From a virus (Duplodnaviria > Caudoviricetes): a stretch of 64,000 nt of DNA. The notes under the pieces were generated by a model. It ran no database searches. It was not told the DNA's origin and worked only from the letters and a program-made list of their open reading frames with translations. Below are positions 3,402 to 48,751 of this stretch, one piece after another. A program made the position numbers and the translations under genes. The stretch lies in the IMG/VR virus record IMGVR_UViG_3300048998_000149, positions 1 through 64,000 of that record; one strand, written 5' to 3'. The stretch's first letter is position 1. Each line of letters opens with the position of its first letter.

Positions 3402-3438
3402 CGCTGACTCCAGGGGTGGGGGGTTGCTGTCTAAACTC

Positions 3439-3468
3439 ATCATACAGCGAGCCGCTCGGTTCTGGCAA
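3439..3468 (-). promoter_or_regulatory. sigmaA-type early promoter TTGCCA-N18-TATGAT
   Basis: member of a 5-copy family GTATTGC..CTGTATGATG. Confidence 0.75.
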
Positions 3469-3482
3469 TACCCAAGGTCTGG

Positions 3483-3662
3483 CTATGCGGCGTCAGTCGC
3501 CGCCTCAGGCACACACTGCGCGACCTTGGGGTGATGCACGTACGCGTACGAAAACTCGGGGGTACCGTCAGAGTGAGTGTCGATCACATGGGCGTATTGC
3601 ACGTGAGGTTCGCTCGAACCGATTTTCGAGCAGCAGCGCTCACATAGCCGGATGTCATCCAT
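3483..3662 (-). CDS. small zinc-binding hypothetical protein
   Basis: CERC...H..C. Confidence 0.55.
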   Translation of the reverse strand: MDDIRLCERCCSKIGSSEPHVQYAHVIDTHSDGTPEFSYAYVHHPKVAQCVPEAATDAA

Positions 3663-3900
3663 GACCAGACCCCGCAGGTGGCGCGAGGAACGCTGGGCTA
3701 CGGGGCTCGCCGACCGGGCCCTGCGCCAAGCCGTGTTCCTCCACATATTCGGCCGCCGCGATCAACAGGTCGGCGGCCTCCAAGAGGTCCTCGTGCACGT
3801 CCACAAGTCGATCTGGGGGAGTAGCGGCGATCACGGCCGCGTTGTAGGCGAGCAGCCGGGCCAGCTCGGACAGGGGGACGTGCGCATAGGCGTGGGTCAC
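3655..3900 (-). CDS. hypothetical protein
   Basis: preceded by the GAGGCACCAC start motif. Confidence 0.65.
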   Translation of the reverse strand: MTHAYAHVPLSELARLLAYNAAVIAATPPDRLVDVHEDLLEAADLLIAAAEYVEEHGLAQGPVGEPRSPAFLAPPAGSGHG

Positions 3901-3933
3901 GGGTGGTGCCTCTCGTTCGGGCCGCAGGGGTGG

Positions 3934-4509
3934 TTAGCGGCCTTGCTGGTCGAGCCACTTGCGGTACGCCGGGATGGCGATAGCCCACAGCCGCCGGCAC
4001 ATCTCGTTGCGCTTCACACCAGCCCGGTCCGCCAACGCCTCGATCTCCTCGCGCTGCGCCGGGACTGATCTACTACCTACTCGATGCCACGCGGCAGCCT
4101 GAAACGGGGGCATCTCGGCGACGTACTTGATCACCTCGCCGTCCAGCAGTTCCACCGCAGGATGTTCTTGGGCTTGGGCGGGGAGCTTGGGTTCACCGAG
4201 CGCGCCCGTCAGGATTTCGTCAGTGGTGACCCCGAAGATCCGGGACAGCGTCAACAGTTCGTCGAGGTGGACGCTGCGGTTCCGTCCCGTTTGGACGGCG
4301 GAGACGGTGTCGGCGGTCCAGGTGGTGTGGTTGGCGGCGCGCATCTTCTCGGCCAGCTTGTCCTGCGTCAGCCCGCTCTGCATGCGCAGTTCCCGTATCG
4401 CATCTCCGACACGGCGTTTCATGCCGGCAAGATCCAGGTCGGGTTTGGTTTTGCCGTAGCGGGCGCCGCGTCGGCGCAGCTCGTCGGGGTCGCGTCGTTC
4501 CTGACTCAC
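3934..4509 (-). CDS. XRE-family HTH transcriptional regulator
   Basis: VGDAIRELRMQSGLTQDKLAEKM...VSAVQTG..SVHLDELLTLSRIFGV. Confidence 0.85.
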   Translation of the reverse strand: MSQERRDPDELRRRGARYGKTKPDLDLAGMKRRVGDAIRELRMQSGLTQDKLAEKMRAANHTTWTADTVSAVQTGRNRSVHLDELLTLSRIFGVTTDEILTGALGEPKLPAQAQEHPAVELLDGEVIKYVAEMPPFQAAAWHRVGSRSVPAQREEIEALADRAGVKRNEMCRRLWAIAIPAYRKWLDQQGR

Positions 4510-4889
4510 GGCGCGTCCTGCCAGTCCCTGGCCAGCACGTATGTGTCGCACGGGAAGCTGATCCCGTAGTCGTCGCTGCACTCCTTGCAGTTCGGCTCGT
4601 ACGGGTCATCACGGACTGGGCGATGCAGTTCGAAAATCGCCCGACGAAGCCCCGAAGCTGCCTCGACTGCCGCCTCGTGAGCGGCCACGATCCCGTCGTT
4701 GTGCAGGCGCTTTATGTCCAGCTCGGCTTGGCGCTGCGCCTTCTCGGCAGCCCACAGCGCTTTTTGCGCCTCCTCCACGCGCCATTCGCGCTCAGCCATG
4801 AGCCAGTGAAGGAGGCGCGTCTCCTCGGGCGTGCACATGCGGGCCGTCTTCGGGCCATCCTCAGATGCTGGGAAAACCATGGGGCTCAC
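4506..4889 (-). CDS. hypothetical protein
   Basis: LHRP...CKEC...FPCDT motif typical of actinophage ORFs. Confidence 0.65.
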   Translation of the reverse strand: MSPMVFPASEDGPKTARMCTPEETRLLHWLMAEREWRVEEAQKALWAAEKAQRQAELDIKRLHNDGIVAAHEAAVEAASGLRRAIFELHRPVRDDPYEPNCKECSDDYGISFPCDTYVLARDWQDAP

Positions 4890-6878: not shown

Positions 6879-7205
6879 TCAGGCGGCTATCTTGGCTTGC
6901 GCCCAGCCGCGTGCCACGGCCTCCCGGGCCTTCGGGAGGCTGCCGTACATGCCCACGACGCGGTCGGTCGGGACGTGGATCAGGAGCCACGGGGTGCCGG
7001 GGGACTCCTCGCGTTCGAACTTCCATTCGCCGTCGGCGCTGACCGCCGCCCAGGTCTCCATGCGGGTAGGCCCGTCGGGTTGGTTGACGCGGCGGAACGT
7101 TGGGCGTTGGAGGGTGAGCTTCGGGTCCAGGTCGACCATGGGCCGACGGGGACGTTTACGCGGGGTGGGGGTCCAGCCAGCGGGCGGGGTGGTGGAGAAC
7201 TGCAT
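6879..7205 (-). CDS. hypothetical early protein
   Basis: follows promoter 7250-7278; AGGAG RBS. Confidence 0.7.
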   Translation of the reverse strand: MQFSTTPPAGWTPTPRKRPRRPMVDLDPKLTLQRPTFRRVNQPDGPTRMETWAAVSADGEWKFEREESPGTPWLLIHVPTDRVVGMYGSLPKAREAVARGWAQAKIAA

Positions 7206-7249
7206 GGGGGCGCTCCTGGGGTGGAAGGTCGCGCTGTGCGTCTAGTTGC

Positions 7250-7278
7250 ATCATACAGCAGTGCGTGCGGTATAGCAA
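7250..7278 (-). promoter_or_regulatory. sigmaA-type early promoter TTGCTA-N17-TATGAT
   Basis: 5-copy promoter family. Confidence 0.8.
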
Positions 7279-10845: not shown

Positions 10846-11105
10846 GCGACGGCGTCCATGCCCCGCGTCCGGCGCAGCGCCTTCCGCTGGATTTCGGTGT
10901 GGCCGCCCCAAACGCCGACTCGAATCTCCCGATCCAGCGCGAAGAGGAGGCAAGGCTGCCTAGACGGGCAGCCGCGGCAAAGCCTCAGAGCGGCGGCAGT
11001 GTCGGCGGCCTGGTCCGAGAAGAAGAGTTCTGGGTCTGTCTCCTGGCAGAGGGCGGCCTCTTGCCAGGTCAGATCGTCGCGACGGTTCCGGGTAGGTGCG
11101 GTCAT
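10842..11105 (-). CDS. whiB: WhiB family transcriptional regulator
   Basis: W...A.C...DPELFF...C..C.....C...GVWGG. Confidence 0.92.
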   Translation of the reverse strand: MTAPTRNRRDDLTWQEAALCQETDPELFFSDQAADTAAALRLCRGCPSRQPCLLFALDREIRVGVWGGHTEIQRKALRRTRGMDAVA

Positions 11106-11276
11106 GGCGGTGGTGCCTCTCTGGTGGGGTGGGGCGGGACAGGGGTGGAGTCCCGGTGGCGCGGGCTTACAACTTGTCGGGCTGGCCTGGCGGTATCGGG
11201 ATTACTTCCCAGGAGCCGACGAGGGGGTGGAGGATCTCGTCGGCCTCCTCGGGGAGGACTGTCACTATCCAGCGCA

Positions 11277-11591
11277 TCACTCGCGCCCCTCGACAGCGGC
11301 GACCAGAGCGTCAAGCAAGGCGAACAGCTGCTCCTGCGTAGCCTCGTGTGGAACCTTTGGCCACAACGTGGCCACTGCGGTCGCAGCCTCGACGATGGGG
11401 GCCTGCTGCCTGTACGCGCGATTGCAGTTCTCCAGAGCGCCTTCAGCTTCAATCAGTAGGCGACCCCGCCGGTTGTACTCGGTCAGTACTGCCTCGACCG
11501 CCAACTGGTAGCGGTCACGCTCACCGCGCCCCGAGCCAGTCGCCCAGACGCGAGCCAACCGCTGGGCTTCGGCTAGTTCGTCAGCCGTCAT
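11277..11591 (-). CDS. hypothetical protein (EAATA...AAVE module)
   Basis: ORF with a paralogous C-terminal module. Confidence 0.65.
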   Translation of the reverse strand: MTADELAEAQRLARVWATGSGRGERDRYQLAVEAVLTEYNRRGRLLIEAEGALENCNRAYRQQAPIVEAATAVATLWPKVPHEATQEQLFALLDALVAAVEGRE

Positions 11592-12880: not shown

Positions 12881-13977
12881 GCCGCTGACCCTTCGCTCGG
12901 TAGTTCCCCATCCAGGGCTGCCTGGACCGAATAGCCGTGGACGTTGATGTAGTCGGCGACCAGCTGGCCGAAGTGCGACAGCATGATTTTATCCCCTGAG
13001 AAGATGCCCAGCACTTCCTGGACGTCCGGCTTCTGGTTGATCCACGACGACACGTCCACGCTGGGAGCCTCACGGATCAGACGCTCGGCCTCATCGAAGT
13101 CGGCGGTGGCGAGCAGCTGGTCGAACACCTCGGATGCTGTGCGGCCCTTCTCGGCCTTGCTCGGACGCTGGTAGGGGGGCTTACGGGTCGGTGCGGGTTC
13201 CTCAACCAGTTCCGCATCCACCACCACCGGCACGTCGACGGGCTTGGCAGCCTTCGCGGCGGCCTCGATCTTTGCGCGCACGTTGGCGGGGGCGCGCTTC
13301 CACACCTGCACGAGCTCGGCCCGGTCGCCGTTGCACTTGGCGATCTCGGCGTCCCAGTCCACCTCAGGGGCGGGCATCTGCTCAACGAGGGTCGTGGGGA
13401 TGCCGTCCTCGCCCACGTTCTCGCCCAACTCCTCGGGCGTGTAGTGCACTCCAGAGAGGGCTTCCTCGCAGGCGTCGCGGGCAGCCTCGGAGATCGCACG
13501 GGCCTTGAGCATCGCCGCTGGGTACTGCTTCCACACAGCCTTGCCGGTCAACCCCGCCTGCTTTGCCCGCTCGATCGTCCAGATCGACTCGAACACAAAG
13601 TCCGGGTCGTCCTTGCGGATGATCTGCGCGGTGGCCTTGGTGTCGTTGCCGGTGACGCGCAGCCGGTGGCCAGCGCGGCGGACCAGTGCGCCAATCAGTG
13701 CGGCCGAAGCGGAAGGCTTGCCCTCGATGATGTGGATGCCGGTGATCGCGGCCATCGGCGCCAACCCGAGCATCTCGCCGTATTCCACGGCGTAGAGCAC
13801 GTTCGCGGGCTGCTTCTTGTACGCGGCCGGCAGCAGCCCGGACTGGGCCAGCTTCTCCGCGTAGTGGACCTTGGAGTTGAGGGAGTTGCGGGACCGGAAC
13901 TGCACGATCTCTGCGCCCGGCGAAGACGCCTCGATGGTCTCGGTCTGCTCGACAAGCGGGACTGATGGCTCAGTCAT
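12877..13977 (-). CDS. RecT/Red-beta-like single-strand annealing protein
   Basis: LAQSGLLP..Y..QPANVL..VEYG..LGL.PM.A...IHIIEGKP...W.QYP..ML.ARA. Confidence 0.8.
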   Translation of the reverse strand: MTEPSVPLVEQTETIEASSPGAEIVQFRSRNSLNSKVHYAEKLAQSGLLPAAYKKQPANVLYAVEYGEMLGLAPMAAITGIHIIEGKPSASAALIGALVRRAGHRLRVTGNDTKATAQIIRKDDPDFVFESIWTIERAKQAGLTGKAVWKQYPAAMLKARAISEAARDACEEALSGVHYTPEELGENVGEDGIPTTLVEQMPAPEVDWDAEIAKCNGDRAELVQVWKRAPANVRAKIEAAAKAAKPVDVPVVVDAELVEEPAPTRKPPYQRPSKAEKGRTASEVFDQLLATADFDEAERLIREAPSVDVSSWINQKPDVQEVLGIFSGDKIMLSHFGQLVADYINVHGYSVQAALDGELPSEGSAA

Positions 13978-14151
13978 GACGGTGGTGCCTTCCAGTGGGG
14001 TGGTAACGCCCGGGGTGGTGGGCGCGTATTCAGTTAGGGCCCTCGGCGGCGATACTCGTTTGGGTGTCGCTTCATCGATAGCCGCCGAGGGAGTTCTTAG
14101 GCCCCGCAGCGGCGGCGGAGACCCTCATCTTCGCCCGCCGCTGCGGGAGTC

Positions 14152-14871
14152 TCAGGCGGCGGACTTTCTCTCCACCGTAATGCCGTCATAGATCACGTTC
14201 TTGCGGACCGCGTCGTTGACGATGCCAGCCAGCTTGTCCTCGCCAGCTGCGGCGAGATCGTGGGCCAGCTCCCGAACCTTCGTCACCTTCGGCTTCGCAG
14301 CGCCGAGGAACGCGAGGGCCCGCTGCGCAACGGCGCAGGCGAACTGCTCCGGGTCCGAGTGCGGGGTAATGTCGGTGGCCTTCGCATCGAGCGCGGCAGC
14401 CCACTCGGCGGACACCAGCGCAGACAGTGCGGCGATGACCTGCGGCAGATCCACGTAGTACTCGTTATGGGTCTTCCGGCCGATCTTGATGTCGCCACCG
14501 GACTGCGGCACGACCAAGCCCGACATGGGGATGCCGTCCTGTTCGCCGACTGCCTCGAACAGTTCCTCTTCCAGGATTTCCTTGCCGGTCTCCGCCACAG
14601 TCTTGAACGCGTTGCCGTAGTCGGCGATCAGTTCGCGTACGCCCTGGACGGCGCGGATCAGGGCGAAGGTGTCCTCGCGGCTGCGGACGGTGCGCTCGGC
14701 GCGGACCTTCGCCACGGCCTCGTTCAGGCGCGTGGTCAGCAGTAGGCGGGTGTCGTGGGGGGTGGGCAGCCCTGGGAGCTGCCGTTCCGGGAACGGAACG
14801 AGGGACTGTGAAAACACGCCGGTGTCCGAGGGGGTGGAGTCGGACCCGGCACCTGGGGTGGTCGGTGCCAT
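14152..14871 (-). CDS. hypothetical protein, first gene of the leftward operon (start uncertain)
   Basis: long ORF right after promoter 14879-14908; the first ~50 nt form two hairpins. Confidence 0.65.
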   Translation of the reverse strand: MAPTTPGAGSDSTPSDTGVFSQSLVPFPERQLPGLPTPHDTRLLLTTRLNEAVAKVRAERTVRSREDTFALIRAVQGVRELIADYGNAFKTVAETGKEILEEELFEAVGEQDGIPMSGLVVPQSGGDIKIGRKTHNEYYVDLPQVIAALSALVSAEWAAALDAKATDITPHSDPEQFACAVAQRALAFLGAAKPKVTKVRELAHDLAAAGEDKLAGIVNDAVRKNVIYDGITVERKSAA

Positions 14872-14878
14872 ACCTCAG

Positions 14879-14908
14879 ATAATAGACCTAGACCTAAGGT
14901 CTATACAA
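14879..14908 (-). promoter_or_regulatory. leftward promoter TTGTAT-N18-TATTAT with palindromic operator TAGACCTAAGGTCTA (14889-14903)
   Basis: sequence match; palindrome lies in the spacer. Confidence 0.75.
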
Positions 14909-14916
14909 GACCCTAT

Positions 14917-15297
14917 TTAGGCGGCCTTGGAGATGGCTCTTTTAGCTGGCCAGGCCATCATCACCGCGTCGTTCCCCGCGGCCAGGTAGGCCTCTGCCGC
15001 CTCGCGGAGCACCGCCGGGACGGACGATCCTGCGGCGACTATCAGGTCGCGGCACTCGTGGAATCGGTCCGCGCTCTGTTTCCAGCGGACTGTGCGGACT
15101 GGTCCGACACTGCCTCGCGGCGCGCGGCGCTGTTGGGGGAGGAGGTGCCCACGGCCGGCTTGGGCGAGCCGCGCCGCCGTGATGATCCAGTGAAAGCACA
15201 GCTCGCCTACCGACTCGCCACTAGCCTCGGCCGCGTCATGGAGACGGCTGGCCAGGGACTCTGGGAGCGGCACCTGCGGACGGTACTGACGGGGCAT
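14917..15297 (-). CDS. tandem ribbon-helix-helix regulator (candidate repressor)
   Basis: two RHH-like units; leaderless ATG 7 nt after TACCCT. Confidence 0.6.
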   Translation of the reverse strand: MPRQYRPQVPLPESLASRLHDAAEASGESVGELCFHWIITAARLAQAGRGHLLPQQRRAPRGSVGPVRTVRWKQSADRFHECRDLIVAAGSSVPAVLREAAEAYLAAGNDAVMMAWPAKRAISKAA

Positions 15298-15466
15298 ATC
15301 CCAAGGGTATGGCACAGGGGTGGCTTTCCACCTCGCCGATAGTGATGATCGGCGTGTCGGAACAGGGGAGACAACCTACGGCGTGTCGCGGTGGTCTTTC
15401 GCGGATCGAGGGTTACGCTCCGCCCAGACCTGCACATAAAAAAAGCGCCACCCCCACGTCAAAGCT

Positions 15467-15829
15467 TTGGCCGGCTTGAAGGGGGCGGCGCCATCCATCG
15501 AAAGGATTGTCGTGAGCCTAGACGCTGTGGCGTCGCGAGTCCATCCGGACACGCCGAAACGCCCCCCGGCCGCGCTCCGCCTGCTGGCGGAACTGTACAG
15601 GCGAGCCACCCCCGACTCTGTCACTGTGAGCCGCGCCGAGCTGGCGCAGAGCCTCGCCGTCTCGGAGCGCACGATCCAGCGCGCCAGTCGCGCCCTGGTC
15701 GTCGCCGATCTGATCGCCGTCACCGGTGACCCGAATGACAGGTACGCACCGAACACGTACCGAGTGCGGCTGCAACCGCCGCACCGGGGCGGTATGTGTG
15801 CGTTTTCCTCTGTGTGGAACAGGTTCTAG
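15467..15829 (+). CDS. winged HTH DNA-binding protein
   Basis: VSRAELAQSLAVSERTIQRASRAL...LI...N.Y. Confidence 0.75.
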   Translation: MAGLKGAAPSIERIVVSLDAVASRVHPDTPKRPPAALRLLAELYRRATPDSVTVSRAELAQSLAVSERTIQRASRALVVADLIAVTGDPNDRYAPNTYRVRLQPPHRGGMCAFSSVWNRF

Positions 15830-16205
15830 GCACGGTCTGCCACCAGTCGGGCACGGGCTGTGAGATCCAGGTGTAGTGGATCTACCGCTTGGCGCAGTCT
15901 GGTGACAGTGATGTTTAACCGTGGGCTATCGGTGGCACCGCGAGCGTCACGAACGCGCTAACGTCACCCACCAGCGTTACCCCGAAAGTCGCCCGCCACC
16001 CCTGCCTCACAGGCAACTGGGCCACCCGGGGGTAGCTGCCGTTGAACCCGTTTCGCATTGAGGGGCGCACCAGCCACCCCGTCAAAGGGTGCCCCCTCAA
16101 TGCGGCGCGGCTTCATGACAAAAGGAGAACCGCCGGCAGGGCTTCGGGAGGGAGGCACCACACCTCTACCACTGCGCCCTGCCGGCGGTCTGAAAGGACC
16201 AGCAG

Positions 16206-17312
16206 ATGTCTAGATCATCGACTAGCCCTTACCGTACCGATCTCACGACCACAGCCCCCACCCCTGGGTTTTGCGGTGCTGGCATCGATACGGGCACCCA
16301 GGGATCTCACGATAGGCCATCGCCACGACAGGATCGGGGTGGTGGCCGTCGTGGAACCCAGGGGTGCACGGACAGGATCGCACATACAAACGCGCCTGTC
16401 TTGTCTCAACGTCCACTTTCTGAGGTAAGGCGACCTTTTGCCTCTGCGAACGGTCAGCCAGGGACTCTTGGGACTTCCTTAGAGGTCGACCGGTCCTCTT
16501 GCCCGGCACGCCCCGACGCCAAGGGCGTCGTGCGCCACGGGAACCGCAACTCCTACAGCAACTTCTACTGCCGCTGCCCCGACGCCCGCGAGGACCACCG
16601 CCTCTACGCGAAACGGCAACGCGAAGGGCGCCTCCGTCCCCGAATGGTGGACTCGACCGGCTCGGCGCGGCGCCTGCAAGCCCTCGCGGTCATGGGCTAC
16701 GGCTCCCCCTTCCTGGCCGAGCGGCTCGGGGTCACTGACACCCGGGTACGGAAGCTCCGACAGCCGTTCTATCCGGTCATCCGCACAGTTCAGGCGCAGG
16801 CTATCGACGCGCTGTACCGATCGCTGAGCATGACACCAGCAGTCGGACTGGCCGCCGACATGGTCCGCGCCAGGGCTGCCGCAGGCTGGGCGCCCGCGCT
16901 GGCGTGGGACGAGGGCGCCATCGACGACCCGTCCGCTGTTCCTGACTATGGCCCCTCTGTCGACCCTGCGGTGAAGGAATGGGAAGCCGTCCTGGACGGC
17001 CAGTTCCCCCAGGAGTCTTCGCGGGGGAGAGGACCCGGACCTCGCGGTAAGCGGCTCCGCGAGGCCGCAGTGGTGTTCCTGACCGAGTCTGGCTGGTCTG
17101 CCTTAGCCATCGCCGAGATGCTCCACAGCACCGCCCGCACTGTGACCCGCGACCGTGAAGCAGCTCGCCAGGCTGGCTGGCGGTTCACGCACGACGAGGG
17201 TGTCGCACCTTCGAGTCATGATGAACGTGCCGCTCACCTAGCGGTGATCACCACCCCACCCCATGCCGAGGCACCCCACTCGGCAACTCAAGAGAGGCAC
17301 CACGCCGCATGA
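16206..17312 (+). CDS. HTH/zinc-finger DNA-binding protein
   Basis: HG..Y...CRC; RRLQAL...G....LAERLGV; C-terminal IAEMLHSTARTVTRD. Confidence 0.7.
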   Translation: MSRSSTSPYRTDLTTTAPTPGFCGAGIDTGTQGSHDRPSPRQDRGGGRRGTQGCTDRIAHTNAPVLSQRPLSEVRRPFASANGQPGTLGTSLEVDRSSCPARPDAKGVVRHGNRNSYSNFYCRCPDAREDHRLYAKRQREGRLRPRMVDSTGSARRLQALAVMGYGSPFLAERLGVTDTRVRKLRQPFYPVIRTVQAQAIDALYRSLSMTPAVGLAADMVRARAAAGWAPALAWDEGAIDDPSAVPDYGPSVDPAVKEWEAVLDGQFPQESSRGRGPGPRGKRLREAAVVFLTESGWSALAIAEMLHSTARTVTRDREAARQAGWRFTHDEGVAPSSHDERAAHLAVITTPPHAEAPHSATQERHHAA

Positions 17313-17713
17313 GATCAATTCCGGTGCGTCGAGGAGGAGTGACCGGCAACAACAAGTTGCCAGTGATCCCCCCGTTGTCCCAGCTCGCCCGAACACCTAG
17401 CAACCCAGACGGCACCTGGTCCGGTCAGTGGCCACTACTGCCCGGTGCCGCAGTTCCCCCCAATCGCATCCACGTGGTCTACACGCTGTTCGACGAGTCC
17501 GAGGCCGTCCAGTACGTCGGATGCACATCCCGCTTCCGGGTGCGCATGAAAGACAACCAGCGCGGCAAGAGCTTCGCAGCCTGGACGGCCACGCCGTACC
17601 CGACGCGGGCGGAAGCCGACGAAGCCGAGACGGCCCTGATCTGGCTCCTCCGCCCACCGCTTAACCGCCTGTTCCTGATTCCAGGCACGAGTCCGGCGGG
17701 GTGTGTTCGATGA
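17309..17713 (+). CDS. GIY-YIG nuclease-like protein
   Basis: VVYTLFD....YVGCT...R...E..LI....P.LN. Confidence 0.7.
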   Translation: MRSIPVRRGGVTGNNKLPVIPPLSQLARTPSNPDGTWSGQWPLLPGAAVPPNRIHVVYTLFDESEAVQYVGCTSRFRVRMKDNQRGKSFAAWTATPYPTRAEADEAETALIWLLRPPLNRLFLIPGTSPAGCVR

Positions 17714-18816
17714 GCACTTCTGAGCCCTTCGCTGTGGAAGCGGACGAAGATGAGACCCCTTTTGCATTGGTGGGGGACTGGGTGCTACTTGCCCCGATTC
17801 CCGACCGAGCAGTCCGCGTGTACGCGCTGCTCCGAGCGCACGTGAACCACGCCAGGAAGGACAACGAGGCGTGGCCATCACAGGAGAAGCTGGCTGCGGC
17901 CCTCGGCTTAAGCAAGCCTGACGACATCGGCAAGTCGATCAAGATCCTGGAGGGGATCGGCGCCGTCCGCAAGAAGTACCGCACGGGCCGCAAGGGTCGG
18001 TACGCCGTGTACGTCGTTCGCCTCCACGCGCCCGCTGGCTACACCGGACTACGCAGCGCGGCGGATGACCTGCACCGTCCAGGCGCGATCGAGCAGCTCG
18101 TCGAGGAACGAGTGAAGCGGCTCCCGCACCGAACCCACGCTGCAATCGCAGCTGCCTCAACGGGGAACACCCCTGATTTGGGGTCACCCGTTAGGACCAC
18201 CCCAGATTTGGGGGCAACCCCAGATCGAGGGGTTGGGAACACCCCCAATCAGGGGTGGGAACCATATAAAGGGGAACCAGACGAAGGAGCTTTCAAGACA
18301 CACACCGCGCTGCCGCGCGGCGAGGTGTGTGACCCCGAACCTCCAGTCATCGAGTTCCCCGACGAGATAGCGGCCACCGACCCCGACGACGCCGCAGCAG
18401 AGTGGGGAACCCGACCGCGTGCCGCGCGTCGAAGTGCAACGCGGTGGAATGCCACCACTCACAGCCCGGCCGCTCGCCAGCTGATGGACGTCTACGTCAA
18501 GGACCACCGTGTCCCCGCCGACACCATGAAACGGCTGCTGCCGGTCGTGACGAAGCTGCTCAAGGAGGACATCCCCGGCGATGTCATTCTCCAGGCCATC
18601 CCGAAGTGCTTCGCCGAAAACTGTGGACCGGTGCTGCTCCCAGACTTCGTGGCCAAAGTGATGCACCAGAGAGACAGCTCCCTGGAACCCGAGCTGGGCA
18701 CCACCGGCCGCCGGCTCCAGGCAGCTGAACGACTCCGCGAGGAGATGCGCGCGGCCGACGCTGCCGAAGCGGCCGGTCGAATCAAGAACACCACCCCACG
18801 AGCAATCACAGGATGA
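17710..18816 (+). CDS. replication initiator protein (N-terminal wHTH, lambda O-like layout)
   Basis: AVRVYALL...AWPSQEKLAAALG; internal iterons. Confidence 0.8.
   Translation: MSTSEPFAVEADEDETPFALVGDWVLLAPIPDRAVRVYALLRAHVNHARKDNEAWPSQEKLAAALGLSKPDDIGKSIKILEGIGAVRKKYRTGRKGRYAVYVVRLHAPAGYTGLRSAADDLHRPGAIEQLVEERVKRLPHRTHAAIAAASTGNTPDLGSPVRTTPDLGATPDRGVGNTPNQGWEPYKGEPDEGAFKTHTALPRGEVCDPEPPVIEFPDEIAATDPDDAAAEWGTRPRAARRSATRWNATTHSPAARQLMDVYVKDHRVPADTMKRLLPVVTKLLKEDIPGDVILQAIPKCFAENCGPVLLPDFVAKVMHQRDSSLEPELGTTGRRLQAAERLREEMRAADAAEAAGRIKNTTPRAITG
18169..18270. repeat. four iteron-like 16-mers ACCCC-N6-GGGG followed by an AT-rich CATATAAA: probable origin of replication
   Basis: copies at 18169, 18199, 18217 and 18241 inside the initiator gene. 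Confidence 0.75.
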
Positions 18817-18825
18817 GGCACCACG

Positions 18826-19530
18826 ATGATCACGAATGAGGAAGCACTCACCCTTCTAGAACTGGCGCTGTGCGGTGACAACCGCACGATTGACAAGGCG
18901 AACGTGATGCTCTGGCGCGAAGTCGCCAAGCAGGGCGGCTGGAACCTCGAGCAGGGCATGCGCGCGGTGATCGAGCACCGCACCTACAAGCCCGGCGTGT
19001 ATCTCGAGCCTGGGCATGTCACTCAGCGGGTCGCCGAGGTCCGCAAGGACATCCGCACCCGCTGGTATGCACCGACGCCACCACTGGAACTGGCCGATGA
19101 TCCGTCGGCGGAGATCGCCTGGCGGCGCCGGGTTATCGCCGAGTTCGTCGAGCGCAACTTGTCCTTGTGGGCCCAGGGCGAACCGCTTGAGGATGCCCCG
19201 TTGCCGACCATTGAGAACGAGAAGCGCGGCGAGCTACCCACGGCTGGCCCGGGTGACTCGCAGGCCAAGCGGGAGGCGCTCGCTCAGCTCCGGCGGTTCA
19301 CTTGGCAAACCTCAATGCCGGAACGGGCGCGCACCGCCACGGAGCACGCCCTCGCAATCGCTGCTCGGGTAGGTCGATGGGAGGCCGTGGATGCGTGCGA
19401 GCTGTGCGACGAGGAAGGCGTTCGCCGCGGCGGCGAGGGCCAACTGATCACGTGCACGCATCCTTCTCTCCCGACCCCTCGCAGGGTCGCCTCTTCGGAG
19501 TCGGCGGAGGCGGTGGGCGGCGGTGGCTGA
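18826..19530 (+). CDS. putative helicase loader/inhibitor-like protein
   Basis: directly after the initiator; EA..LL....D.R.......W. Confidence 0.55.
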   Translation: MITNEEALTLLELALCGDNRTIDKANVMLWREVAKQGGWNLEQGMRAVIEHRTYKPGVYLEPGHVTQRVAEVRKDIRTRWYAPTPPLELADDPSAEIAWRRRVIAEFVERNLSLWAQGEPLEDAPLPTIENEKRGELPTAGPGDSQAKREALAQLRRFTWQTSMPERARTATEHALAIAARVGRWEAVDACELCDEEGVRRGGEGQLITCTHPSLPTPRRVASSESAEAVGGGG

Positions 19531-20235: not shown

Positions 20236-20341
20236 AGTATGGTGGGGCTCACAACAAATTAATCGGAGCCAACGTCGGGGGGACACCCCACCCCTGGCGA
20301 CCCAAAGGTCTCCGCCCCCACCCCGAGAGAGGCACCACCCT

Positions 20342-20920: not shown

Positions 20921-21132
20921 CGATCACGCCGATAGTCCTTCAGCCCCGCCTCTACGAGGCCGGCTACTGGCCCTGCGACCGCTGCGGCGAATCCCCTTGG
21001 CCGCAGCAAGTCAAACTGACCGAAGACGGCTACCGCTGCGAACCGTGCAGGGGAATCGTCCGGAACACCCTCGCAAGGCTCGCCCCCAAGGCAACCCCAC
21101 CAGTTCCCGCACATCGCCGCCCCGCTGCCTAA
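20917..21132 (+). CDS. small zinc-finger protein
   Basis: CDRC...CEPC. Confidence 0.6.
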   Translation: MTITPIVLQPRLYEAGYWPCDRCGESPWPQQVKLTEDGYRCEPCRGIVRNTLARLAPKATPPVPAHRRPAA

Positions 21133-35235: not shown

Positions 35236-35432
35236 CGCAGCGGCAGCTTCTTCTGGATGCCCGTCAAGGTGCGTTTGAAGTAGCGGCACAGTTCGGCGCT
35301 CTCCCCGCCGAACAGCTCTGGGTATTGGATGCCCGCAGTCAACAGGCAGTTCAACATTTCCCGTTCGTCTCGGGTGAGGTCGAGTGTGCGGCCTCGCTGG
35401 TGGGGTGGACGGACGCGGGCGGGTGCGGACAT
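35232..35432 (-). CDS. hypothetical protein
   Basis: AAGGCACCGC start motif on the minus strand. Confidence 0.6.
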   Translation of the reverse strand: MSAPARVRPPHQRGRTLDLTRDEREMLNCLLTAGIQYPELFGGESAELCRYFKRTLTGIQKKLPLR

Positions 35433-35634
35433 GGCGGTGCCTTCCGAAGGGCCAAGCTGCTTTGGGGTGGTAATAACCACCGTAGGGGAACCCCCGCGCC
35501 TTAGAACAAGTTCCTGTAACCCGTTTGCGCGCGTCGATCGGTGAACGGTCGACCCAGCGCGCCACGCCTGCCGCACTGGCGCTCAGTACTGCTCCCCTGT
35601 CCCAGCCTTCTTCTCCCCACCTGAGGAGAGCCTC

Positions 35635-37267: not shown

Positions 37268-37296
37268 ATCATACAGCGGAACGCTCCTGTAAGCAA
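37268..37296 (-). promoter_or_regulatory. sigmaA-type promoter TTGCTT-N17-TATGAT
   Basis: 5-copy promoter family. Confidence 0.8.
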
Positions 37297-37321
37297 TACT
37301 TCAAGCCTAGGGAGACCTCGC

Positions 37322-39469: not shown

Positions 39470-39709
39470 CTGTCACGCCGGGTATCGACCAGCTGGTCAT
39501 GGCGCTCGGCCTGACCTGCTTGGGTCTGGCGGCCCTCGAGAAGAGCTGGCGGATCGCCCTGTTTGGGCTGCTGCTCATCGCAGCAGTGTTCGTCTTTCCC
39601 GACTGGCTCTAACTATCTCCCACAGTCCGGCCCCCACCCCAAGGACCGACGTCCCCTGCTGCTCCCCACCACCACGCGGGGGGCGTCGGTCCGGCCAACG
39701 GAGACCAAC

Positions 39710-42927: not shown

Positions 42928-43005
42928 GGTGAGCGATGCCGAAGCGGACGAGGCCCAAGGTTGTGAACCTTGGTTTAGCGGGTTCGAGTCCCGTCGCTCA
43001 CCCCA
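42928..43005 (+). tRNA. tRNA-His (GTG)
   Basis: G-1 with GTGAGCG/CGCTCAC-C acceptor, CAAGG-TTGTGAA-CCTTG anticodon arm, GCGGG-TTCGAGT-CCCGT T arm, encoded CCA. Confidence 0.88.
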
Positions 43006-43033: not shown

Positions 43034-43621
43034 ATGGCCACCAACACCCCTGACACCCCCAAGGACGACGCAGCGGCCAACGGTGCTCCCGCAGGGCAGC
43101 CCGAAGCCGCCACGCCCGCAGCGGCCCCCACAGCGTCGAAGCGGCGTGGCCGGCCGAACATGCGCATGAACTCGAAAACCAGCCCCGCTGCGATCGAACG
43201 CCTCGAACGCGACCTAGCCAACGTCAACCTGCGCCGCTCCGGTGTCGCCTGGGATGCCATCGCCACCCAGCTCGGCTACGCCGACGCAGGCCACGCCCAT
43301 CGCCGCTTCATGGCCGTCATGGCCGCATACCCGCGTGAGGACGTCGACCAGGCCCGCCAGGTCGAACTAGACCGCCTCGACCAAATCCAGCACGCCATCT
43401 GGGCGCAGTGTTTGGACACCGAAAGCAAAAATCAGCATTGGGCGATCGACCGCATGCTGAAACTCTCTGACCAGCGCGCCAGGTTGCTCGGCTTGAACGC
43501 CCCTGTCAGGCAGGAGATCTCCGTGCTGTCCGAGTCGGTTGTCGATAAGGCGATCCGCGAGTTGCAGGCACAGATGCAGGCTCAGGCCAGCGAGGCTGGC
43601 GTAGAACTACCCGCCGAGTAG
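43034..43621 (+). CDS. terminase small subunit (putative)
   Basis: LRR.G..W..IA.QLGY; EL.RLD; AIDR.LK..DQRARLLGL.AP.RQEI. Confidence 0.7.
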   Translation: MATNTPDTPKDDAAANGAPAGQPEAATPAAAPTASKRRGRPNMRMNSKTSPAAIERLERDLANVNLRRSGVAWDAIATQLGYADAGHAHRRFMAVMAAYPREDVDQARQVELDRLDQIQHAIWAQCLDTESKNQHWAIDRMLKLSDQRARLLGLNAPVRQEISVLSESVVDKAIRELQAQMQAQASEAGVELPAE

Positions 43622-43873: not shown

Positions 43874-44279
43874 GACCGCTGCCCTTGGCCTGGAGATACT
43901 TAGATCGAGCCGCCTGGAACGCGTCCCGGTCTCCGCCCCTGTCTGGATGGGCGTCGGCCATTGCACGCCGCAGCTCCGACACGGATCGCGGTCCCGGTCG
44001 GCGGCTGATGATCTCCGGTGGTTCGACATAGACGGGGAAGTCCTTCTCCCACCATCGGCCTGACCGCCGGTACACCTTGCCTTCGGTCTCAAGCTTGATC
44101 CGGTCAACGAACCCGATCTCGGGGCCGCGGTAGGTTTCTTCCCGGACGTAGTAGATCCGCTTAGCTGTCTTCTTCGTGATCCGGAATCGAACGACGACCG
44201 AAACGAAGTCGGTGTGTTCGCCGTAGTCCTTCCCGTAGAGGTACTCGACGGGAGCGGCGTCCTGTGGTGGCTCGGTCAC
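43860..44279 (-). CDS. protein with C-terminal J-domain
   Basis: LRRAMADAHPDRGGDRDAFQ....Y. Confidence 0.7.
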   Translation of the reverse strand: MTEPPQDAAPVEYLYGKDYGEHTDFVSVVVRFRITKKTAKRIYYVREETYRGPEIGFVDRIKLETEGKVYRRSGRWWEKDFPVYVEPPEIISRRPGPRSVSELRRAMADAHPDRGGDRDAFQAARSKYLQAKGSGRDPD

Positions 44280-44641
44280 TGTTGCGGCTCGGGTGACAGC
44301 AGGGACCGTTTCGCTTCGATCTCCGCGTCTCGTTGGCGGTCGATGCCGTTCGCACAGTGAGGTAGTCCTCGCGCGAACGCTGCCTCACCGATGGGATGCA
44401 GTCCCTGGTAGTTGTAGCGGGGCCGCTCGGTCCTGATGGCCAGCAGCTCAGCGTCGTGCGTGGCTTCCCTGCTTGGCAGGAAGTCGAGGGTGATGCGCTC
44501 GATTTCCGCAGCCCAGTGCTTCGCCCTGGCATAGGCGATGCGGTCGGCTATCTGCGCTAGGTGCGTTCGGCCGACGTACAGCAGCGTGGCGTCTAGCGCC
44601 CAGATGCGGTACACGATGTGGATTTTGATGGCGGGGGCCAT
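44276..44641 (-). CDS. GIY-YIG-like protein
   Basis: VYR.W....LLYVG.T...AE..AI..ERP.YN. Confidence 0.7.
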   Translation of the reverse strand: MAPAIKIHIVYRIWALDATLLYVGRTHLAQIADRIAYARAKHWAAEIERITLDFLPSREATHDAELLAIRTERPRYNYQGLHPIGEAAFARGLPHCANGIDRQRDAEIEAKRSLLSPEPQQ

Positions 44642-44818
44642 TTAGCGGGTCCTCTTCGGGGTGGTGCGAGCCGTCATGGCCTCGCTGAGGAGCTTTCGAA
44701 TCATCTGGGACACGTTGCCCTCGGTTTCAAGGTCGGCGAGGCGACGCACTTCGGCGAGTGCGGTTGGCGCCAGCCGGACCGGGAAAACCTCCCGAGGAGC
44801 CCGTTTCGTATCTGTCAC
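44642..44818 (-). CDS. ribbon-helix-helix protein (leaderless)
   Basis: VFPVRL......VRRLA.....NVSQMIRKLL; TGG-TAGAAT 7 nt upstream. Confidence 0.7.
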   Translation of the reverse strand: MTDTKRAPREVFPVRLAPTALAEVRRLADLETEGNVSQMIRKLLSEAMTARTTPKRTR

Positions 44819-46454: not shown

Positions 46455-46679
46455 TCAGAACTGGGTGCGGTAGAACTTGCCGCCGCGGCTGACAGCGTCA
46501 GCGGCGTGCGTCCACGTCACGTCGATGCAGCGCCCATTCCGATCGACAACTCGCGCGTAGCCCCAAACCGGGCTGCTGATCTGGGCCGGCTGGCCGTCCA
46601 GGGTGACGCCCTTCGCACGGCACAGCTCGGAGCGCTTGTCGGCGGTGAGTACGTCGCTGGTGGTGGTCGTGGTGGTCAT
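46455..46679 (-). CDS. hypothetical early protein
   Basis: GGAGGCACCAC-ATG after a promoter. Confidence 0.7.
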   Translation of the reverse strand: MTTTTTTSDVLTADKRSELCRAKGVTLDGQPAQISSPVWGYARVVDRNGRCIDVTWTHAADAVSRGGKFYRTQF

Positions 46680-46726
46680 GTGGTGCCTCCTGTGAGATGG
46701 GGTGGGAGCTCAACCTGTCTGACGTA

Positions 46727-46755
46727 ATCATACACCGGATCTGCCGGATGTGCCA
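46727..46755 (-). promoter_or_regulatory. sigmaA-type promoter TGGCAC-N17-TATGAT
   Basis: 5-copy family; near-identical to 37258-37280. Confidence 0.7.
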
Positions 46756-46885
46756 TACCTAAGGTGGGGAAACGGGCCGCGCCGCCCTAAAGGGGTGGGG
46801 GGCGACGCGGCCCCGCTGGGGAGCTGGCCTAGTGGGAGAAAACAAAGCGGCGACCGCTTAACAAAGCGACGACCGTTCGGCGCAG

Positions 46886-47968
46886 CTAGCGCCAGGCGTT
46901 CAGGATCGGCGGCACCGACAGATCCAACGGCGGGTACGAGTCGCGGGTAGTGGACCGGCCACTACGGCGCAACGCCAACCGGCCCGACTGGATCAGGAAC
47001 GGCTCCACATCGGCCGACAGCTCCCTCGGGTTCATCCCCAATGCGGTAGCTAGCGGGTTGATGCCGATCGGACCGCCCTTGAACGTCGTCGCCAACGTTT
47101 GCAGCACACGCCGGTCACGTCCGTCTAGGCCGTACTGGTCGACGCCGGCGTACTCCATGCCCTGCAACGCGGTCTCAGCGTCCAGCACAGCGGCCGGATC
47201 GCCGGTCAGGTCATCGGAGTACACCTGCACCGCACCCAACAGTTCCAGGGCCTTACGGGGCGTCGAGCGGGATGCGCCCGCAATGACCAGGGCAGCATCG
47301 ACGTCGAGGTGGATGCCAGCCTCTTCGCAGTGCGACAGCAGCAGCATCGCCAAGTCGTCCACCGCATACGGCTCGATGTGCGCGTGGAACTTGAACCTGT
47401 TCCGCAGCGGGGCCAACACCGAACCCGGCTCGGTCGTCGCGGCGATCAGAGTGAACGGCGCCAGCTGCACAGTCTGCGGGCCATCCTCGCTGGGCATGAT
47501 GGCAAACCCGTCCTGCATCGCGTTGTACAGGCCTTCCTGGACGCTGTGGTGCACGCTGTGCACTTCATCCAGGAACAGCACATCGTTGGGCCGCAGCATC
47601 GACAGGGTTATGGCCAGCGACCGCGCATCGGGCAGCGCGTTCGGCATCACCTGGTGGAACGTCGATGCCACACCCTCAGCGACCAGCTCGCCGTGAACAG
47701 CCTGCGCAATGAGCGTCTTCCCGAACCCGGGCGCACCATCCAGAAACACATGGCCGGCGGCCTGCCCGCGCAGCTTCGCCGAACGGATCAGCGACCCGAG
47801 CCGCATCGTCAACTCGGGCTGGCCGATCACATCGGACAGCCGCTTAGACGGAGGCTCGGGCACTACCTCAGGTTCGGGTTCGTCGGACACCACACGCAAG
47901 GCCCGCGGCTTGGGGGCCACGATGCCGTGCTTCGCGGCGAGCCGCTCGAACGGGCTGGGGCTGGTCAT
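46886..47968 (-). CDS. ruvB: RuvB-like Holliday junction branch migration ATPase
   Basis: VIGQ, GAPGFGKT, LFLDEVH, FTLIAATT, PLRNRF, SRSTPR, GLD..DR..L...FKGGP.G, EPFLIQ. Confidence 0.88.
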   Translation of the reverse strand: MTSPSPFERLAAKHGIVAPKPRALRVVSDEPEPEVVPEPPSKRLSDVIGQPELTMRLGSLIRSAKLRGQAAGHVFLDGAPGFGKTLIAQAVHGELVAEGVASTFHQVMPNALPDARSLAITLSMLRPNDVLFLDEVHSVHHSVQEGLYNAMQDGFAIMPSEDGPQTVQLAPFTLIAATTEPGSVLAPLRNRFKFHAHIEPYAVDDLAMLLLSHCEEAGIHLDVDAALVIAGASRSTPRKALELLGAVQVYSDDLTGDPAAVLDAETALQGMEYAGVDQYGLDGRDRRVLQTLATTFKGGPIGINPLATALGMNPRELSADVEPFLIQSGRLALRRSGRSTTRDSYPPLDLSVPPILNAWR

Positions 47969-48048
47969 TGCTTGGCTCCTCGGGAGCTGGGTAGTGCAGG
48001 TCTGGCAACCAGGAACGGCCCTGTCGCATGCAGGGCCGAAGCTGGTGG

Positions 48049-48192
48049 TCAGAGCAGGTCGAACATGGCGGCTGTAGCTGCCCTGTGGGCAGCCTCAACC
48101 TGGGTGCGCACGTCGGTAGGGGTGTCGTCCGTGAGGGCGTCCAGTGCAGCCTGAGCGGCATCCAGCGCGGCGAACACATCGACGATGGCCAT
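48049..48192 (-). CDS. small helical protein (47 aa)
   Basis: GAGGAG RBS; followed by hairpin 48016-48038. Confidence 0.55.
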   Translation of the reverse strand: MAIVDVFAALDAAQAALDALTDDTPTDVRTQVEAAHRAATAAMFDLL

Positions 48193-48203
48193 GGCGTGTC
48201 TCC

Positions 48204-48377
48204 TCAGAGCTCGGGGTAGGCAGACGCGGCGAACACAGCGGCAACCTTCGCCGCCATGCGGGCAGCCTCACGGCCCTGACCCGACAGGGCAGCCACAAAC
48301 AGCGGGCCAATCGTCGGCTCGTCCACCACGGGGCGGTCGTGGTCCCAGTCGCTGTGCGGGTTGTATGGAGCGGACAT
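48204..48377 (-). CDS. small hypothetical protein (57 aa)
   Basis: GGAGGCACCAG-ATG. Confidence 0.6.
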   Translation of the reverse strand: MSAPYNPHSDWDHDRPVVDEPTIGPLFVAALSGQGREAARMAAKVAAVFAASAYPEL

Positions 48378-48458
48378 CTGGTGCCTCCGTGGGGTGGGGT
48401 CGGAGCAGGTCTGGCGACCAACGCGACGCCCTGGGGGTGCAGGGCGCCGCGCAAGCGG

Positions 48459-48662
48459 TCAGGCCTGGTACATGCGGTAGATGCCAATCGGGCGGATCGC
48501 GTGGGTGGTGACGGCGGTACGCAGCACCTGGGCGTTGCGACCCTTGACGCCGGCGGCGTAGGCGTCGGCGTGGGCTTCGGTGTCGAACAGGAACGGCACG
48601 GTGTGGGTGCGGTGGGCGTTGCCGCTCAGGTCTGCGGCGGTGATCGCGACGGTGGTGGTCAT
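48459..48662 (-). CDS. small hypothetical protein
   Basis: GGAGGCACCAC-ATG. Confidence 0.65.
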   Translation of the reverse strand: MTTTVAITAADLSGNAHRTHTVPFLFDTEAHADAYAAGVKGRNAQVLRTAVTTHAIRPIGIYRMYQA

Positions 48663-48751
48663 GTGGTGCCTCCGTGAAGCTGGGAGCCCGGGGTGGGGAG
48701 CTCTTGGTGTATGACCTGAGTCTACTCCCAATGCAGTGAGGTGGGGGGTTT

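Follow-up and report, generated by a model that had tools for sequence, protein, structure and literature searches.

The closest described counterparts of the element treated here are the start-associated sequences of mycobacteriophages (SAS and ESAS of Cluster K; PMC3203893; 2025 survey PMC12699233). At about half of the SAS sites, a further element with dyad symmetry is located upstream (PMC3203893, PMC12699233). Start-associated repeats of actinophages have been catalogued since 2011 without a tested function, and it is unsettled whether those of Cluster K act as RNA or as DNA. In this study, a stretch of 64,000 nt (the window), which covers the first 64 kb of one virus record of 100,509 bp (66% G+C; IMGVR_UViG_3300048998_000149, Caudoviricetes), was analysed with respect to the heptamer CCACCCC. 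Early and middle, non-virion cistrons carry a two-part leader, with this word as its upstream and an extended ribosome-binding box as its downstream half.

In phage lambda, the nut sites consist of boxA and boxB and are used by the N protein; there are two per genome, they act on the polymerase upstream of terminators, and boxB is read via its loop, a GNRA-like pentaloop. The original prediction for the DNA studied here described CCACCCC in dispersed hairpin loops right after promoters and proposed a nut/boxB-like or 6C-like signal for antitermination, processing or translation. The 6C small RNA (sRNA) of Actinobacteria (Rfam RF01066; PMC6486639) is free-standing, approximately 75 nt long and has stems of 12 to 13 bp, the loops of which are runs of C.

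Distribution of CCACCCC and its coupling to a ribosome-binding box

The word was found 56 times in the window, compared to 19.3 ± 4.7 times in dinucleotide shuffles. The whole 100.5-kb genome contains 73 copies, 41 of which are located in intergenic DNA, although this makes up just 15% of the genome; the others are coding-sense (25 to 26) and coding-antisense (7 to 8) copies. In the co-directional intergenic sequence (10.5 kb), 29 copies are oriented in sense and 2 in antisense direction, while a first-order Markov null gives 3.6 ± 1.9 sense copies (maximum 10 in 1000). CCACCCC is the most over-represented 7-mer of the intergenic sense strand (z = 13), and the next-ranked words all belong to AGGCACC. 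Words of the same composition and one-letter variants reach only 2 to 13 copies in the intergenic sense sequence. The top words recur in a related phage located inside a Mycobacterium sp. metagenome-assembled genome (MAG), where CCACCCC is found 17 times (3.3 expected) and GAGGCAC 10 times (1.1 expected). The observation of the original prediction is confirmed by this enrichment.

A by-product of C-rich sense strands and Thr-Pro codons would need no function at all. The mRNA strand is indeed C-rich, and the frame NCC-ACC-CCN, which consists of preferred codons, holds 20 of the coding-sense copies. However, the intergenic excess is eight-fold both over the Markov null and over words of the same composition, coding-sense copies outnumber those in codon shuffles (26 compared to 15.2 ± 3.6), and conservation in relatives (see below) is far above neutral. 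For the intergenic copies this explanation is refuted by the Markov excess, the replication in the MAG phage, the conservation and the comparison with words of the same composition, and for the word in general it is scarcely credible. The coding-sense copies are clustered at the 5' ends of genes (9 out of 26 in the first 60 nt, p = 0.003).

The orientation of CCACCCC tracks transcription: it is on the minus strand from 1 to 15.3 kb, on the plus strand from 15.4 to 43.6 kb, and again on the minus strand from 43.9 to 48.7 kb and at the far right end. The virion genes (49 to 84 kb) are essentially devoid of it. On both strands the word is limited to non-virion (early/middle) genes, and late genes have ordinary Shine-Dalgarno sequences. 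Genes were called by a codon log-odds model trained on long open reading frames (ORFs); in the absence of an annotation, this caller is crude and its starts are approximate. Relative to the start codons, the first base of CCACCCC peaks at -18 to -30. Approximately 30 sites were counted, mostly one per non-coupled cistron. The base preceding the word is T 12 times, C 12 times, A 12 times and G 5 times.

AGGCACC occurs 30 times and in 18 confident cases forms the core of (G)AGAGGCACCAC, located 0 to 5 nt before the start codon and always in sense orientation; the start codon is ATG in 15 of these 18. All 18 confident starts bearing the box GAGAGGCACCAC have CCACCCC at most 45 nt upstream; the word is missing upstream of two doubtful box sites (42842 and 83555). 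No confident box was found at the virion genes between 49 and 84 kb. The leader-bearing genes follow an intergenic gap, while most other early genes are coupled via ATGA or GTGA overlaps. Eleven loci carry two copies of CCACCCC 15 to 62 nt apart, typically with the distal one in a hairpin and the proximal one linear beside the Shine-Dalgarno sequence. By analogy, this spacing is the geometry of dual-site RNA-binding regulators.

Display of CCACCCC in hairpin loops

For each copy, the most favourable ungapped stem with 4 or more bp around CCACCCC was determined, allowing loops of up to 20 nt, with a threshold of -6 kcal/mol. Such stems enclose 12 of 39 intergenic copies, compared to 3.4 ± 1.6 with shuffled flanks (maximum 8 in 200). 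Among the intergenic sense copies, 10 of 29 are so enclosed, compared to 13.7% of arbitrary 7-nt windows of the same sequence. All seven bases are predicted to be unpaired with a mean probability of 0.51, compared to 0.25 for controls (Wilcoxon p = 2.7e-4). The bias of the word towards loop positions, part of the original prediction, therefore holds for the intergenic copies; for the coding-sense copies overall, no hairpin excess was found.

At 13 sites in three phages, the loop has 8 nt, N followed by CCACCCC (NCCACCCC), the closing pair comes directly after the last C and the stems are otherwise unrelated, with all six stem pairs variable and 89% of the cells paired; as these sites were picked for having stems, the set illustrates the pattern and is no test of it. 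In four strong hairpins, G-U pairs occur that can form on the sense strand only. A comparison of sense and antisense stem stability over all sites proved uninformative, since the G-rich antisense strand forms many G-U stems; a clear preference for the sense strand is shown by only four strong hairpins. A covariance model (R1) comprises 22 positions and is too small to add much; sites not used for training score E = 0.05 to 4. In five Mycobacterium genomes the CCACCCC hairpin is scarce (4 to 9 weak matches per 6 Mb, compared to 6 strong ones in the 100-kb phage). A terminator scan, which tests for a GC-rich stem plus U tract, called no hairpin with a CCACCCC loop.

Conservation and covariation in related phages

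Three phage genomes were compared in all. The first relative is the MAG phage (approximately 70 kb, at least 70 kb covered, on at least 10 contigs, with 64 to 80% nucleotide identity), the second a JGI soil contig (L142). Of 21 intergenic comparisons that could be aligned, with flanks 79% identical, 15 preserve the complete heptamer (neutral expectation 0.19). In 11 orthologous site sets, CCACCCC stays in the loop and the stems change (two relatives, approximately 70 to 79% DNA identity). At 24064, the promoter, the GGGAG/CTCCC core stem, the loop and the box are all kept in the MAG phage (L201, 12700). At 48690, a U-G pair is replaced by U-A (orthologue L205, 4147), and at 16074 an A-U pair by G-C (L206). 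The 14-bp stem at 46792 has moved its register by 4 nt in L205 (5429) with CCACCCC remaining in the loop, and the stem at 21124-21184 is moved by one pair in L204 (3275). The loop at 11142 is identical in L155 on a wholly different stem (CCGAGGT/ACCTCGG), followed by box and ATG, and a wholly different 5-bp stem likewise holds CCACCCC in the loop in the counterpart of 28480 (L201, 5129). The leader hairpin of the RecT-like gene is kept in L142 and L155, where the stem of L155 is extended to 7 bp.

On the evidence of these sequence comparisons, the upstream element is clearly an RNA hairpin with a fixed loop and free stems. The covariation between orthologues, the G-U pairs of the four strong hairpins and the orientation following transcription together support an RNA-level, phage-wide signal on non-structural transcripts, as had originally been proposed from the fixed loop and variable stems. 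The known DNA operators of actinophages include oriented, asymmetric repeats close to gene starts, and the phage encodes several helix-turn-helix (HTH) proteins and WhiB, so that an oriented operator at the DNA level, bound by a regulator as in the Cluster A stoperators or in the role proposed for the Cluster K ESAS, has to be considered. Compensating changes in variable stems around a fixed loop suit a single-stranded nucleic acid and not a duplex, however; the G-U pairs of the four strong hairpins are A-C mismatches on the other strand, and 7 nt are short for a duplex operator. A DNA operator is therefore very unlikely.

Probably leaderless start of the leftward operon

The most informative case is the first gene of the leftward operon, the start of which comprises the following features.

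14824-14884, minus strand: start of the leftward operon, with a -10 box TATTAT (14879-14884) and ATG (14869-14871); the first gene is ORF 14152-14871
14847-14870, minus strand: hairpin 1, 7-bp stem and 10-nt loop with CCACCCC, formed by codons 1 to 8
14824-14845, minus strand: hairpin 2, 6-bp stem and 10-nt loop with CCACCCC; codons 1 to 16 contain both hairpins

The distance between the -10 box and the ATG is 7 nt here and 6 nt in both relatives. Because of this distance in all three phages, the message of 14152-14871 is probably leaderless. A leaderless message has no 5' untranslated region (UTR), so that a start-proximal RNA signal must be written in codons, as is seen here. The loop of hairpin 1 recurs in L142 and L155 on other stems (CGCCA/TGGCG and CCCCT/AGGGG), with covariation at two pairs of synonymous third-codon positions (A-U/G-C/C-G at one, A-U/U-A at the other). 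The encoded peptide, Pro-Thr-Thr-Pro-Gly, is conserved among close homologues only. The tandem pair of hairpins originally placed at the very start of the operon is real, with the caveat that it lies inside the first 16 codons of the first ORF. Hairpin 2 is not conserved, and the relatives carry GGCACCAC in its place. This replacement hints that the two words, which have a CCAC/CACC core in common, may be read by one factor. In the leftward early promoter (14871-14920), a perfect 15-bp palindrome (14889-14903) is located between the -35 and -10 boxes and resembles an operator.

Promoters and the position of the hairpins in transcripts

Six sigma-70-like promoters form one family with a TATTGC-type -35 box, a spacer of 17 to 18 nt and a TATGAT-type -10 box; a generic promoter scan recovered three of the six. 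Family members are located at 3439-3468, 7250-7278, 24010-24041, 37268-37297 and 46727-46756, often with AGACAG at approximately +8, and the MAG phage has family promoters at orthologous places. CCACCCC begins 17 to 25 nt after the -10 box in five of the six promoters, and also after several promoters of the MAG phage. The location 'right after promoters' given in the original prediction thus applies to five of six sigma-70-like promoters and to a minority only of all sites. Many sites are located at junctions within long polycistronic operons.

The promoter-proximal copies, in the window and several in the related phage, as well as the tandem hairpin pair at the very start of the leftward operon, would suit processive antitermination similar to nut or put sites, in which the nascent hairpin modifies the RNA polymerase with or without a phage factor. 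Against this, the approximately 30 sites are mostly internal and tied to individual start codons, no boxA-like partner is enriched and linear copies are common. Terminator-like sites in the early operons are at shuffle level (8 compared to 8.6, 12 to 8.2 and 4 to 5.1). No N-, Q- or NusG-like protein was recognised by Pfam among the 105 non-structural proteins, although small arginine-rich peptides escape such searches. Antitermination is accordingly quite unlikely, and the nut/boxB analogy drawn earlier is abandoned in view of the many single-cistron sites, the lacking boxA-like word and the terminator counts.

Leaders along the genome

The sites outside the leftward operon start and the non-coding stretch described below are as follows, with those on the minus strand given first.

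3399-3444, minus strand: promoter-proximal leader with -10 box TATGAT (3439-3444) and linear CCACCCC (3413-3419) directly before a GGAG Shine-Dalgarno sequence; no hairpin
3898-3942, minus strand: intercistronic leader; hairpin 3920-3942 with 6-bp stem (-11.3 kcal/mol), its loop including CCACCCC (probability unpaired 0.997) as well as the upstream stop codon; box 3903-3914; GTG 3898-3900
7162-7255, minus strand: promoter-proximal leader with -10 box TATGAT (7250-7255) and ATG 7203-7205; further in-frame CCACCCC at 7186 and 7162
7210-7234, minus strand: weak hairpin with CCACCCC and an AGGAG Shine-Dalgarno sequence in the loop; the GCGC...GCGC layout is also found in the MAG phage (L202, 12907)
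11103-11155, minus strand: leader of the WhiB-like gene; hairpin 11135-11155 with loop UCCACCCCU; linear copy 11126-11132; box GAGAGGCACCAC 11110-11121; ATG 11103-11105
11214-11245, minus strand: 10-bp hairpin with CCACCCC in a 12-nt loop (-17 kcal/mol, reached by 0 of 200 shuffles), inside a doubtful 37-codon ORF
13975-14025, minus strand: leader of the RecT-like gene; hairpin 14006-14025 with loop ACCACCCC; linear CCACCCC 13997-14003; box GAAGGCACCAC 13982-13992; ATG 13975-13977
35432-35470, minus strand: leader with CCACCCC (35464-35470) predicted to pair with an upstream GGTGG; box 35434-35444; ATG 35430-35432; orthologue L207, 1817
44642-44664, minus strand: leader of gene 44276-44641, with linear CCACCCC 16 nt ahead of the ATG; GAAGAGGA-type Shine-Dalgarno sequence
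46677-46859, minus strand: in this order, terminator 46845-46859, 14-bp hairpin 46774-46813 with CCACCCC loop, promoter (-10 box 46727-46732), linear CCACCCC 46699-46705, box 46680-46691 and ATG 46677-46679
48375-48405, minus strand: leader; hairpin 48385-48405 (CTCCG/CGGAG) with CCACCCC in the loop, the 3' arm being the Shine-Dalgarno sequence; box 48378-48389; ATG 48375-48377
48660-48725, minus strand: leader with -10-like TAGACT; hairpin 48684-48703 with 6-bp stem including U-G and loop CCCACCCC; box 48663-48674; ATG 48660-48662
17251-17315, plus strand: leader with overlapping CCACCCC at 17251 and 17256; hairpin 17266-17287 with loop GCACCCCA; box 17292-17303; ATG 17313; a clean hairpin (GCCGGG/CTCGGC, loop ACCACCCC) occupies this place in the counterparts (L206, 1491; L142, 117)
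18791-18828, plus strand: leader with CCACCCC within the last codons of the upstream gene; box 18813-18824; ATG 18826
20288-20345, plus strand: leader with linear CCACCCC at 20288 and 20318; box 20327-20338, followed by GTG; orthologue L204, 4137
21124-21184, plus strand: leader; hairpin 21124-21148 with 6-bp stem and 13-nt loop; linear copy 21156-21162; box 21168-21179; GTG 21182
22096-22133, plus strand: leader; hairpin 22096-22111 (GGCG/CGCC) with loop UCCACCCC; box 22119-22130 abutting ATG 22131; orthologue L204, 2308
24036-24111, plus strand: promoter-proximal leader with -10 box TATGAT (24036-24041); hairpin 24055-24078 with 8-bp stem and loop ACCACCCC; box 24094-24103; ATG 24109
25238-25260, plus strand: leader with linear CCACCCC abutting the box 25245-25254; ATG 25258; probability unpaired 0.92
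28462-28555, plus strand: leader; 14-bp hairpin 28462-28508 with CCACCCC in a 19-nt loop; weak hairpin 28520-28537 with loop CCCACCCC; box 28536-28545; ATG 28553
39625-39646, plus strand: weak hairpin (4 bp, 14-nt loop including CCACCCC; -3.3 kcal/mol, probability unpaired 0.91), no box following

The hairpins listed by the original prediction fall into three groups. Those at 14847-14870, 14824-14845, 14006-14025, 11135-11155, 11214-11245, 46774-46813, 48684-48703, 24055-24078, 16054-16104 and 28462-28508 are clearly real. The ones at 7210-7234, 28520-28537 and 39625-39646 are weak. Two are not supported, since the word at 16253-16270 lies half in the stem and no hairpin is present at 3413.

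Conserved non-coding stretch between 15.83 and 16.7 kb

The stretch 15830-16700 is 71 to 88% identical in L142 and L206 and highly structured, and its substitutions show no codon periodicity. As the substitutions are spread evenly over the codon phases, ORF 16206-17312 is doubtful at its 5' end. The stretch contains one feature that displays both words.

16054-16189, plus strand: twin hairpins, 16054-16104 with CCACCCC and 16129-16189 with the box word GGAGGCACCAC in the loop; no start codon attached

In the consensus fold of the twin hairpins with L142 and L206, seven pairs are kept through changes on both sides. The presence of the box word in a loop without a start codon implies that the box is not just a Shine-Dalgarno sequence. 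The RNA of the 15.83-16.2 kb region would be compatible with a decoy RNA, by analogy with regulatory systems discussed below. Its further structures are several covarying hairpins and one long-range helix, in which 12 bp are formed between 16260-16271 and 16359-16370. At 15438-15500, a long GC hairpin follows A7 on the plus strand, equivalent to T7 after the stem on the minus strand, and is kept in L142 and L155; it looks like an intrinsic terminator for leftward transcription from the 16-kb region. Here, CCACCCC is located in the stem and not in the loop.

A single conserved GGGGUGG is located on the sense strand of non-coding phage sequence (16336). It bears on a 6C-like mode of action, in which the C-rich loop would pair with an sRNA of host or phage containing this anti-word, or with nucleotides 4 to 10 of the host initiator tRNA. 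The invariant 7-nt word has the size of a seed, and 6C loops act by chaperone-free G-C pairing (PMC6486639). Since neither C nor A can wobble, the partner must be GGGGUGG; pairing with rRNA was rejected, as none is present in the 16S, 23S and 5S rRNAs of Mycobacterium. Unlike these, the Mycobacterium initiator tRNA-Met (L217 to L219, 1501-1577) has the exact complement of CCACCCC at positions 4 to 10, within a 16-nt 5' stretch. This segment is buried in the acceptor stem and core, however, and the complementarity ends at 7 nt; one 7-mer match is unsurprising in several kb of abundant RNA, and the match is probably a coincidence. In the consensus fold, the anti-word at 16336 is engaged in base pairs. 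Taken together, a base-pairing partner of this kind is improbable. An 8-nt complement of the box tail near position 1033 of the 16S rRNA, which we take to lie inside helix 34, was given no weight.

Genome and relatives

The genome encodes a large terminase, a portal protein, a RuvB-like ATPase, a RecT-like protein, a beta clamp, WhiB, methylases, a tyrosine recombinase and one tRNA-His. The latter (GTG, 42929-43005) is the sole tRNA gene of the phage and is located just 5' of gene 43034-43621. The contigs of the MAG phage (G001) correspond to loci L155, L201 to L207, L184 and L209. The host of the phage is probably Mycobacterium; the MAG is the sole hint, and a binning artefact is possible. 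No close relative was found in the phage collection, which includes cultured phages, and scanning of viral contigs for the two-part pattern gave single, chance-like matches per contig only. More protein-anchored scans of viral contigs did not reveal close relatives either. The closest homologues, P0003 and P0011, belong to contigs of 110 kb and 115 kb. Portal relatives (L119 to L124), which cover virion genes, were set aside, and distant RecT relatives (L125 to L141) do not use the word alike; in L125 it is found within terminator stems.

The final 127 bp of the record (100383-100509) are an exact repeat of 274-400, and the genes beside both copies (34-273 and 100155-100382, both on the minus strand) are paralogues. 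The repeat may be genuine or may stem from a k-mer-length overlap in the assembly, and caution is needed with the record ends. Several small leftward genes in 1312-2271 and 11167-11591 end in a common coding motif, GCCGCTGTCGAGG (...AAVEE...), just before the next start, and two of them have an identical junction before ATGACG. This suggests a tandem paralogue family with coupled translation.

Proposed function of the leader

The leader layout is single-stranded CCACCCC, 0 to 30 nt, the extended Shine-Dalgarno box (G)AGAGGCACCAC, 0 to 5 nt and the start codon. CCACCCC is displayed single-stranded either by a hairpin loop (typically 8 nt on an arbitrary stem) or by a G-poor linear stretch, and could serve as an operator that one sequence-specific, trans-acting factor reads as single-stranded RNA. 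A protein encoded by phage or host is favoured as the reader, and an RNA is also conceivable. Bound beside the ribosome-binding site, the reader would set translation initiation, and hence stability, of the early and middle gene set in a co-ordinated manner. Early messages might thereby be privileged early in infection, or might be shut off once the late genes take over. The working likeness is CsrA/RsmE or T4 RegA reading many leaders. We infer both the reader and its effect, and with moderate confidence propose that CCACCCC is an mRNA operator for one sequence-specific reader at the translation-initiation region. This proposal is based on the invariant, seed-sized, single-stranded word, its display in a loop or linear beside the Shine-Dalgarno sequence, the paired copies, the restriction to early and middle genes and the signal in the 5' codons of a leaderless message. 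Of the three functions considered by the original prediction, translation control fits the anatomy best.

Several observations weigh against an operator for translation. Hairpins hold only a third to a half of the copies, the others being in G-poor linear leaders by the Shine-Dalgarno sequence, and 12 of 39 intergenic copies are predicted to be paired. The covariation comes from two relatives only, and the starts from the crude gene caller. The strong hairpin 46774-46813 is located between a terminator and the next promoter, where a role in translation is hard to see. Neither was an RNA-binding Pfam domain found in the 105 non-structural proteins, and the ten promoter-proximal proteins are orphans in PHROGs.

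The main rival is a signal for mRNA processing or stability, in which the loop would be cut by a sequence-specific endoribonuclease or by the host RNase E, or 5' hairpins would block decay dependent on the 5' end. T4 RegB cuts early messages, and mycobacterial RNase E cuts before C. The promoter-proximal hairpins start approximately 2 to 9 nt from the inferred 5' end, many sites are at polycistronic junctions, the word is confined to early and middle transcripts, and the hairpin 46774-46813, downstream of a terminator, suits a role at the 3' end or in stability better than one in translation. However, hairpins that protect would work without an invariant loop, and cleavage in the loop would abolish the hairpin. 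The ribosome-binding region is indicated by the narrow spacing from the Shine-Dalgarno sequence and by the linear copies abutting it, and no nuclease candidate was seen by Pfam among the 105 non-structural proteins. Processing or stability is thus a possible explanation, but rather an unlikely one.

An extension of the operator proposal, more doubtful still and drawn by analogy, is that the phage might have its own post-transcriptional regulon of the Csr type. CCACCCC, and perhaps also the related CACCAC of the box, would be read by one factor in hairpin loops and next to the Shine-Dalgarno sequences of approximately 30 early and middle messages, with the RNA of the 15.83-16.2 kb region as a decoy timing the switch from early to late genes.

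This clade offers a cleaner case than the actinophage repeats catalogued so far, since the RNA hairpin undergoes compensating changes even through codons and the hairpin word is coupled almost one-to-one with an extended ribosome-binding box, in early and middle genes only. A dedicated reader, if there is one, would be a global regulator of translation in Actinobacteria that is encoded by a phage. To our knowledge, regulators such as homologues of Hfq, ProQ and CsrA are not known in this group. As portable parts for the control of expression, the CCACCCC leaders could also be of use in mycobacteria.

Comparison with known systems

With the lambda nut and HK022 put sites, the phage elements share the form of small RNA hairpins soon after early promoters. 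They differ from these in the approximately 30 sites tracking start codons, the lack of a terminator excess and of a boxA partner, and the 8-nt, C-rich loop.

C-rich loops in a high-GC actinobacterial setting are common to the phage elements and 6C RNA, and the tandem pair at 14824-14870 recalls its two loops. In Mycobacterium, the 6C loops of the host are GACCCCCCG and UCCUCCCCCCCU on 12- to 13-bp stems and contain no invariant A, unlike the phage loops, which have an invariant A, are carried by stems of 4 to 8 bp and are located inside mRNA leaders. The Rfam 6C model gave no match at gathering score in the window and none up to E = 5 in 13900-16700, while it scores approximately 90 bits in five Mycobacterium genomes; the Rfam search returned nothing but a tRNA. 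Membership in the 6C family, as considered originally, is therefore rejected.

The leaders of CsrA/RsmE targets and the CsrB/RsmZ decoys serve as the working analogy. As in these leaders, the word is found in loops and beside the Shine-Dalgarno sequence, often in two copies 15 to 60 nt apart, and as in CsrB/RsmZ, a separate structured RNA (16054-16189) shows words in loops without a gene start. The Csr word is GGA and thus differs from CCACCCC, no CsrA-like protein was found among the 105 non-structural proteins, and the likeness is one of sequence anatomy alone.

The nearest described kind are the SAS and ESAS of Cluster K. Common to SAS and the elements studied here is an asymmetric box, located in one orientation a few nt before the start, 3 to 7 nt in the case of SAS, that combines a Shine-Dalgarno core with conserved bases unable to pair with 16S rRNA. 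Both are restricted to non-structural genes with mostly ATG starts. The box itself differs, GAGAGGCACCAC here and the 13-mer GGGATAGGAGCCC in SAS, which are unrelated and not within two mismatches of each other. ESAS have conserved 17-bp imperfect inverted-repeat arms with a variable spacer, and RNA pairing was found to be unsupported by the authors (PMC3203893, PMC12699233). In the phage studied here, by contrast, the arms vary with compensating changes, the loop word is invariant, and CCACCCC is also found without any hairpin. The CCACCCC leader is thus an inverted architecture compared to ESAS.

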